In this document: in pieces, positions 58,314-58,660 of the stretch
How the letters are laid out: each line of letters begins with the position of its first letter
Numbering within the stretch: position 1 is the stretch's first letter
Virus record (IMG/VR): IMGVR_UViG_3300021376_000029
Span: 21,289 to 85,288 of that record
Length of the DNA stretch: 64,000 nucleotides
Direction: 5' to 3' (one strand)
From: a virus
Notes under the pieces: generated by a model
The model's database searches: none
Told to the model about the DNA's origin: nothing
Seen by the model: the letters and a program-made list of their open reading frames with translations, nothing else
Program-made: the position numbers and the translations under genes

Positions 58314-58343
58314 TTGACAATTGATATCAGAATTCAATAGAAT
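58314..58343 (+). promoter_or_regulatory. sigma70-type promoter in antisense orientation
   Basis: TTGACA(58314)-18-TAGAAT(58338). Confidence 0.6.
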
Positions 58344-58464
58344 CAAGAGTAGGTTCGTTATACTCACTGCTCTGATCTTGAGCAGTGATAGTATCAAGAA
58401 TGGTGAGCAATTCATCACCATTCTTTGCTTGTTTGAGCATAGAAACCATCAATTGAGTAGGCAT
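58327..58464 (-). CDS. Small hypothetical protein (45 aa; 53 aa from the alternative ATG at 58488)
   Basis: Manual translation MPTQLMVSMLKQAKNGDELLTILDTITAQDQSSEYNEPTLDSIEF. Confidence 0.6.
   Translation of the reverse strand: MPTQLMVSMLKQAKNGDELLTILDTITAQDQSSEYNEPTLDSIEF
58350..58450 (+). ncRNA. Candidate structured antisense RNA with three consecutive hairpins
   Basis: 9-bp, 11-bp and 5-bp stems directly downstream of the + strand promoter. Confidence 0.4.
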
Positions 58465-58660
58465 AATCAAAGAAGAATCAAAGGACATTTGTTATACTAT
58501 AATAGTTAATACTAGTATAGTATTGTTAATATTATAATCTTTATGATTATAATAGTTTTGTAAAAATCTTAAATTTAAAGTTTTTAAGATTTTTAAGATT
58601 TTTATAAAATTAAAGATTCTGTGGAATTTGAGTTTTCCACAGAATCTTAAATTTTGAAAT

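Follow-up and report, generated by a model that had tools for sequence, protein, structure and literature searches.

A 45-codon gene on the − strand of a T4-like cyanophage contains two stem-loops within its coding sequence, hairpin 1 and hairpin 2, both of which are retained in six diverged relatives. As judged from the aligned sequences, secondary structure in the coding sequence appears to be the conserved and selected feature of this locus, and it is best kept on the mRNA strand. The hairpins also seem to fit the mRNA better than the antisense RNA that had been proposed in a preliminary description of the locus. Our tentative reading, to which we assign a probability of roughly 45%, is that this is an ordinary compact early-gene cassette with selected mRNA structure, located in the hyperplastic small-gene region of the phage.

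The window, the 64-kb stretch of DNA analysed here, comes from an 85-kb IMG/VR viral contig whose closest DNA relatives are Synechococcus T4-like phages, and it is a T4-like cyanophage (Kyanoviridae) contig. Genes in the region of the locus lie on the − strand, with many tiny ORFs and tRNAs between 56 and 61 kb, and the GC content of about 60% at 56–57 kb falls toward an AT-rich flank near 58.3 kb. This small-gene region includes two tRNA genes on the − strand (59784–59866 and 60742–60814; Rfam tRNA, 62 and 54 bits) and consensus 12/12 sigma-70 promoters at 60210–60238 and 60128–60156. Upstream of the mini-gene is the Kyano_Gp96 gene (58661–58987, − strand; PF23790, E = 4e-44), with a 14-bp terminator hairpin (58613–58648, − strand) that contains TTTTCCACA. 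The 170-nt AT-rich spacer between the two genes holds, beyond those of the mini-gene, three perfect palindromic hairpins of 10, 13, and 14 bp (58530–58648), the last being the Gp96 terminator, and 5 of the 12 perfect hairpins in the window fall within 58364–58648. For comparison, we defined a clade consisting of the window and seven other loci, which yield six further distinct sequences with 58–98% protein identity and no indels. The mini-gene lies 178–196 nt downstream of Gp96 in 8/8 clade members, and in phage S-CREM1 it also follows a Gp96 homologue, with a spacer of about 175 nt. Gp96 and the mini-gene are a conserved two-gene module. Just upstream of the mini-gene, a 5'-UTR stem-loop formed by ATACTATA...TATAGTAT (58494–58523, − strand; z = −2.8) has its outer arms retained in relatives, while the inner stem is replaced by other complementary sequences, of 9–13 bp in L087, L089, and L090.

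The − strand ORF (58327–58464; start ATG at 58464, stop at 58327–58329) is a real protein gene in its 45-aa form, as the preliminary description had it, and encodes a conserved acidic mini-protein. An in-frame ATG at 58488 opens a leader (58465–58488, − strand) that lies outside the conserved protein. This upstream ATG is ACG in L090, and in L089 an in-frame stop comes after it. With the longer form as query, tblastn homology begins at residue 8–9, which is the second ATG at 58464. The 45-aa form is therefore the right one, because homology begins at 58464 and the upstream ATG is unconserved in L090 and L089. Relatives fall into 12 protein clusters, the closest of them at 81–91% identity, with 75 distinct CDS from 108 viral and metagenomic loci, and the start, stop, and C-terminal motif are all conserved in the family. 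From its N terminus the protein runs through a conserved stretch (consensus MSKxVMxSMLxQGNTGxEILSILD) and an acidic linker of variable sequence to a C-terminus of the form ...EPTLxxIEF, which is ...EPTLDSIEF in the window. AlphaFold2 with the family alignment predicted helices at residues 3–12 and 16–29 followed by an extended tail (pLDDT 76). The protein is hydrophilic, with a pI of 4.05 (4.05–4.56 across the family) and a GRAVY of −0.35, and it is not expected to form a membrane helix, since the maximum 19-residue Kyte-Doolittle mean is only 0.51.

Codon usage in the mini-gene family is strongly skewed, with ATA at 0/313, TTA at 1/440, TCA at 8/412, and CGA at 0/32. GGA, AGA, and TCA are depleted 5–10-fold relative to neighbouring genes. 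This avoidance of rare codons fits a well-expressed protein gene. Pfam contains no family for the mini-protein, PHROGs gave a single weak match (phrog_27308, E = 0.038), and Foldseek with the AlphaFold2 model returned no match at E ≤ 0.001. A PDB profile search matched RecA concatemers only, with a score that is repeat-inflated and amounts to 2.6 bits per copy. The family tail is acidic with a C-terminal Phe (…DSIEF, …EEIPF, …DEIPF, …EEIAF). Acidic, Phe-terminated tails are also found at the C-terminal tip of bacterial SSB (…DDDIPF) and in T7 gp2.5. By this resemblance the mini-protein tail might compete for SSB-tail binding pockets. A search of the phage record for the SSB family gave no match, and the same search returned no control loci either.

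Both hairpins can be drawn on either strand. Hairpin 1 (58360–58394) has a 9-bp perfect stem at 58364–58388, with arms TCACTGCTC (58364–58372) and GAGCAGTGA (58380–58388) around a 7-nt loop, and a 4-bp outer extension. Hairpin 2 (58396–58425) is an 11-bp perfect stem with an 8-nt loop, its arms being AAGAATGGTGA (58396–58406) and TCACCATTCTT (58415–58425). On the + strand it is followed by the U-rich TTGCTTGTTTG, which gives it a terminator-like appearance. A third stem, TGCTT/GAGCA (58426–58439, either strand), has 5 bp including one G·U and is not conserved. The three stems at 58364–58388, 58396–58425, and 58426–58439 are all located where the preliminary description placed them. Its suggested closure of the structure by GGTT/AACC was not borne out, as this pairing is absent from both the MFE and centroid folds and its AACC side is altered in relatives. 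The 87-nt + strand RNA predicted for 58350–58436 folds at −32.2 kcal/mol (z = −4.65), and the fold of the mRNA segment complementary to it is just as good (z = −3.9).

Perfect hairpins with a stem of at least 9 bp and a loop of 3–10 nt number 12 in the 64-kb window against 3.6 expected, and two of the 12 lie inside the 138-nt mini-gene CDS. We compared each hairpin with nulls that keep the protein, using either the clade's own codon usage or synonymous codons permuted within each gene. Against these synonymous-codon nulls the window gave z = −4.0 (sense) and −4.1 (antisense) for hairpin 2, and −3.8 (sense) and −2.7 (antisense) for hairpin 1. Clade-specific nulls were used because the family-wide excess of structure relative to flank codon usage is confounded by the codon bias of the mini-gene; control genes in the family-wide test also gave slightly negative z (−0.33).

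Hairpin 1 lies in the variable linker, and its pairing is preserved in 93% of cells on the mRNA strand and 95% on the + strand. In relatives, 4–5 of its pairs are changed on both sides, and some of these changes alter amino acids. For example, ACTGCTC/GAGCAGT becomes ACTGGAG.../...CCAGT in L090 and AGTACTG/CAGTACT in L093. Such changes are good evidence, at the level of sequence comparison, that selection has acted on base pairing rather than on a protein-binding sequence. Hairpin 2 shows zero double changes, and conserved K-N and I-L codons dictate the six outer pairs of its stem. Its inner pairs change from G-C to G·U on the mRNA strand in 8 cells, which are C·A mismatches on the + strand, and overall 93% of cells in relatives are paired on the mRNA strand versus 84% on the + strand. 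The sense-strand z of hairpin 2 is −2.2 to −4.3 in all 7 distinct clade sequences, whereas on the + strand it is significant only in the window, L087, and L088 (−2.6 to −4.1) and is −0.5 to −0.9 in L089, L090, L092, and L093. The U-rich run that follows it on the + strand is lost in L087–L093. RNAalifold, run blind, recovered both hairpins on the mRNA strand (−26.1 kcal/mol), but on the + strand it recovered hairpin 1 alone (−17.4 kcal/mol). The third stem is paired in 62.5% of cells, whichever strand is considered. ACC and GAG, rare codons that make up 8% of Thr and 16% of Glu codons, respectively, are found at paired positions.

These results divide the earlier claims about the locus. Dual coding holds, in that a real protein gene coincides with secondary structure that covariation indicates to be under selection. 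Covariation among homologues is seen in hairpin 1; hairpin 2 has no double changes, and the third stem is unconserved. The suggested decoy RNA is neither favoured nor disfavoured by these results. A conserved three-hairpin antisense RNA is not upheld, with the third stem paired at 62.5% and hairpin 2 and the U-tract decaying on the + strand.

Directly after the mini-gene stop codon is an imperfect inverted repeat (58291–58320, − strand) predicted to form a stem-loop of −10.1 kcal/mol. This 30-nt element is single copy in the window, and in IMG/VR it was found only within the clade (contig of L092). It overlaps a palindromic motif, GTGACA-N10-TGGCAC (58284–58305, − strand), a candidate operator of the next cassette. 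In the form GTGACA-N10-TG(G/T)CAC the motif has 7 sites in the window versus 0.33 expected, all within 56.4–61.1 kb (starting at 56440, 57374, 58284, 58908, 59048, 59760, and 61030, thus spanning 56440–61051), and those at 58284, 59048, and 59760 lie about 55–60 nt upstream of − strand start codons. It may serve the small-gene cassettes as an operator or activator site. The motif also occurs after the mini-gene in cyanophage contigs L082, L071, L065, and L008, in either orientation.

A stretch of about 48 nt after the stop codon is near-invariant in the window and in L086–L092. Clade homology runs out immediately past TGGCACAG, beyond which the relatives carry three different genes between them. 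One of these encodes a 73-aa membrane protein in L089, L092, and L093. Within the window, the mini-gene side of the junction has 38% GC (58–59 kb) and the other side 51–59% (56–58 kb). The pattern of homology makes the regulatory element after the stop codon a recombination junction. Promoter-early stem-loop (PeSL) cassettes are known in T4-like phages (Arbiol 2010, PMC2839356; Comeau 2014, PMC4122927); the descriptions come from phages of enterobacteria and Vibrio, and cyanophage S-PM2 was considered to have few of them (PMC4503421). The present locus resembles them in that a small function-unassigned ORF in the hyperplastic region is followed directly by a stem-loop overlapping a TTGACA box, and in that homology among relatives breaks at this element, with different genes beyond it. 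In most of the mini-gene family, as read from the flanks, the loop of a GC-rich stem carries TTGACA, and a −10 lies 17–18 nt away. The window departs from PeSLs in two respects: its sense-strand TTGACA has no −10 at 17 ± 1 nt, the nearest −10-like hexamer being about 38 nt away, and its element overlaps the 22-bp palindromic motif repeated 7 times. In L093 the element carries a sigma-70-like promoter sequence on the sense strand, TTGACT-17-TACATT.

On the + strand, a sigma-70-like site, TTGACA-18-TAGAAT (58314–58343), spans the mini-gene stop codon, with the −35 at 58314–58319, an 18-nt spacer, and the −10 at 58338–58343. The coordinates given for it in the preliminary description are all correct, and it matches the consensus at 11/12 positions. 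The pattern TTGACA-N16-18-TAnnnT occurs 11 times in the window versus 5.4 ± 2.2 in shuffles, and since about five occurrences per window are expected, the match alone proves nothing. The site is kept in 8/8 clade members as TTGAC(A/T)-17/18-TA(GAA/AAC/TGA/GGA)T. Its TTGACA is the complement of the 5' arm of the stem-loop behind the stop codon, and TAGAAT is the complement of the codons GAT-TCT-ATT (D-S-I), such that the protein determines T1 and T6, and a synonymous choice, that of a T-ending codon, decides A2 only. This choice is made in all clade members at four codons (TCT, TTT, CAT, and CCT), with p of about 0.1 under phage codon usage. In L093, a different 15-bp stem again lies over a TTGACT box, and this is mirrored to the other strand with TAGGAT at 17 nt. 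Outside the clade, an antisense site of at least 10/12 is present in only 2 of 67 family members; a promoter of at least 10/12 on the gene strand just after the stop is present in 37 of the 67. Being near consensus, like the phage's 12/12 early promoters, the + strand site may well fire.

Under the compact-cassette reading, the − strand ORF would make a conserved, strongly codon-biased acidic mini-protein, and selection would maintain the two stem-loops of its CDS among the nearest relatives even where this means altering residues of the variable linker. The hairpins most likely act in the mRNA itself, because they are best retained on the mRNA strand. There they would give a short, AU-rich early transcript a folded structure that protects it from the host's single-strand-specific RNases, or they would adjust how it is translated. 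Stabilisation against such RNases seems the most plausible role, and mRNA stabilisation would be a generic one. In a cyanobacterial host, dsRNA masks RNase E sites during phage infection (PMC3113571). The + strand −35 would then be the mirror arm of the stem-loop/operator and the −10 would be the D-S-I codons. If it fires, the site would give an RNA of about 87 nt ending at hairpin 2 in the window phage, though this RNA does not appear to be the conserved feature. Several points argue against placing the function in the mRNA. Hairpin 1 is paired to the same extent on the two strands, only three or four of just six distinct lineages provide the strand asymmetry of hairpin 2, and in L090 and L093 the inner stem, rich in wobble pairs, could have decayed rather than been conserved. 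The near-consensus + strand promoter is present in every clade member, including L093 with its different stem-loop sequence. Cis-antisense systems with kissing loops also show complementary hairpins on both strands.

The main rival, to be taken seriously though doubtful, is that the locus encodes a functional cis-antisense small RNA similar to that of lambda, in which OOP RNA lies opposite the 3' end of cII. A host sigma-70-type polymerase would make the two-hairpin RNA of about 87 nt (~58350–58436) early, and this RNA would pair with the mini-gene mRNA through complementary loops to alter its stability or translation, acting as a timing switch. The 11/12 promoter favours this, as does the occurrence of a −35 and a TAnnnT −10 at 17–18 nt in 8/8 clade members with four −10 hexamers and two stem-loop sequences, but promoter matches this good are expected by chance, and conservation needs one free site only. 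The window phage has a terminator-like hairpin and U-tract at the right distance, and these are lost from the + strand in L087–L093. Covariation is seen in hairpin 1, which has 95% of its + strand cells paired, and both hairpins are significant on that strand in the window, L087, and L088; the feature is missing from the rest of the mini-gene family. Like OOP, which is about 80 nt long, the product would be a short RNA that has a promoter and a terminator of its own and is situated both within and opposite the 3' part of a small early gene. Unlike OOP, it is a predicted transcript, and the terminator that would end it is unconserved among relatives. One T4-like cyanophage, S-PM2, does have an experimentally shown antisense RNA, CfrI, which has a length of about 225 nt and is found opposite psbA and a homing-endonuclease gene (PMC2984593). 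The antisense RNA predicted here is similar to it in phage type, but there is no sequence relation between CfrI and the mini-gene locus. A fuller version would have a freshwater T4-like cyanophage clade encode a conserved cis-antisense RNA of about 87 nt, with its promoter in the mini-gene stop/3' stem-loop and hairpin 1 kissing that gates mini-protein timing, making an OOP/cII-type switch in a lytic cyanophage; this we consider rather unlikely.

It is improbable that the hairpins and promoter-like site have no function and arose neutrally from the amino-acid sequence, the codon bias, and past recombination. The K-N and I-L codons do set the six outermost pairs of hairpin 2, control genes have slightly negative z too (−0.33), and independent lineages are few. 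However, compensatory double changes, including amino-acid-changing ones, maintain hairpin 1, z reaches −4 against nulls preserving protein and codon composition, and one 138-nt gene contains two of the 12 perfect hairpins of the window. We find it very improbable that the locus is a replication-origin-like element, with the + strand transcript entering the AT-rich block at 58490–58612 and priming DNA synthesis via an R-loop, as transcripts do at T4 oriF and oriG. A strong promoter does face an AT-rich, palindrome-dense block about 140 nt downstream, but hairpin 2 and the U-tract would halt most transcripts ahead of it, the block is also a plain promoter/terminator spacer between Gp96 and the mini-gene that is found in all relatives, and there is no skew signal.

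The reading to which we give the least credence, and hardly any, is that of a type-I toxin-antitoxin pair, raised in the preliminary description, or of a protein-coding gene on the antisense strand. As in the Ibs/Sib and hok/sok loci, a small ORF is faced by a fully complementary structured RNA, here predicted, and there is a weak Rfam resemblance to Sib RNA. However, type-I toxins are small hydrophobic membrane-inserting peptides, and the mini-protein is acidic (pI 4.05), soluble, and hydrophilic, with no membrane helix. The Rfam search that had been suggested as a check gave only sub-threshold matches, with SIB_RNA (RF00113) at 23.8 bits, below its gathering score of 56, and a sau-19 match on the Gp96 terminator. 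The in-register antisense frame is open in 60 of the 75 family members versus about 8 expected. We rejected an antisense protein-coding ORF as the cause, since the open frame follows from a general tendency to avoid rare A-ending codons, not one specific to TTA, CTA, or TCA: ATA, GGA, AGA, and CGA are as depleted as TTA and TCA. The + strand frame also has no ATG or ribosome-binding site after the predicted start, and it contains stops in L090 and L093.

The regulation of tiny early genes in T4-like cyanophages is almost unknown, with one antisense RNA, CfrI, shown there. The mini-gene locus offers a small and testable case in which RNA structure would constrain a coding sequence strongly enough to change amino acids, and it adjoins a promoter/stem-loop element where gene cassettes were exchanged. 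If the + strand site is active, it would represent a second, simpler antisense system for T4-like cyanophages. If it is inactive, the locus would illustrate that promoters which look convincing but are spurious arise as mirror images when a stem-loop covers a −35 box.
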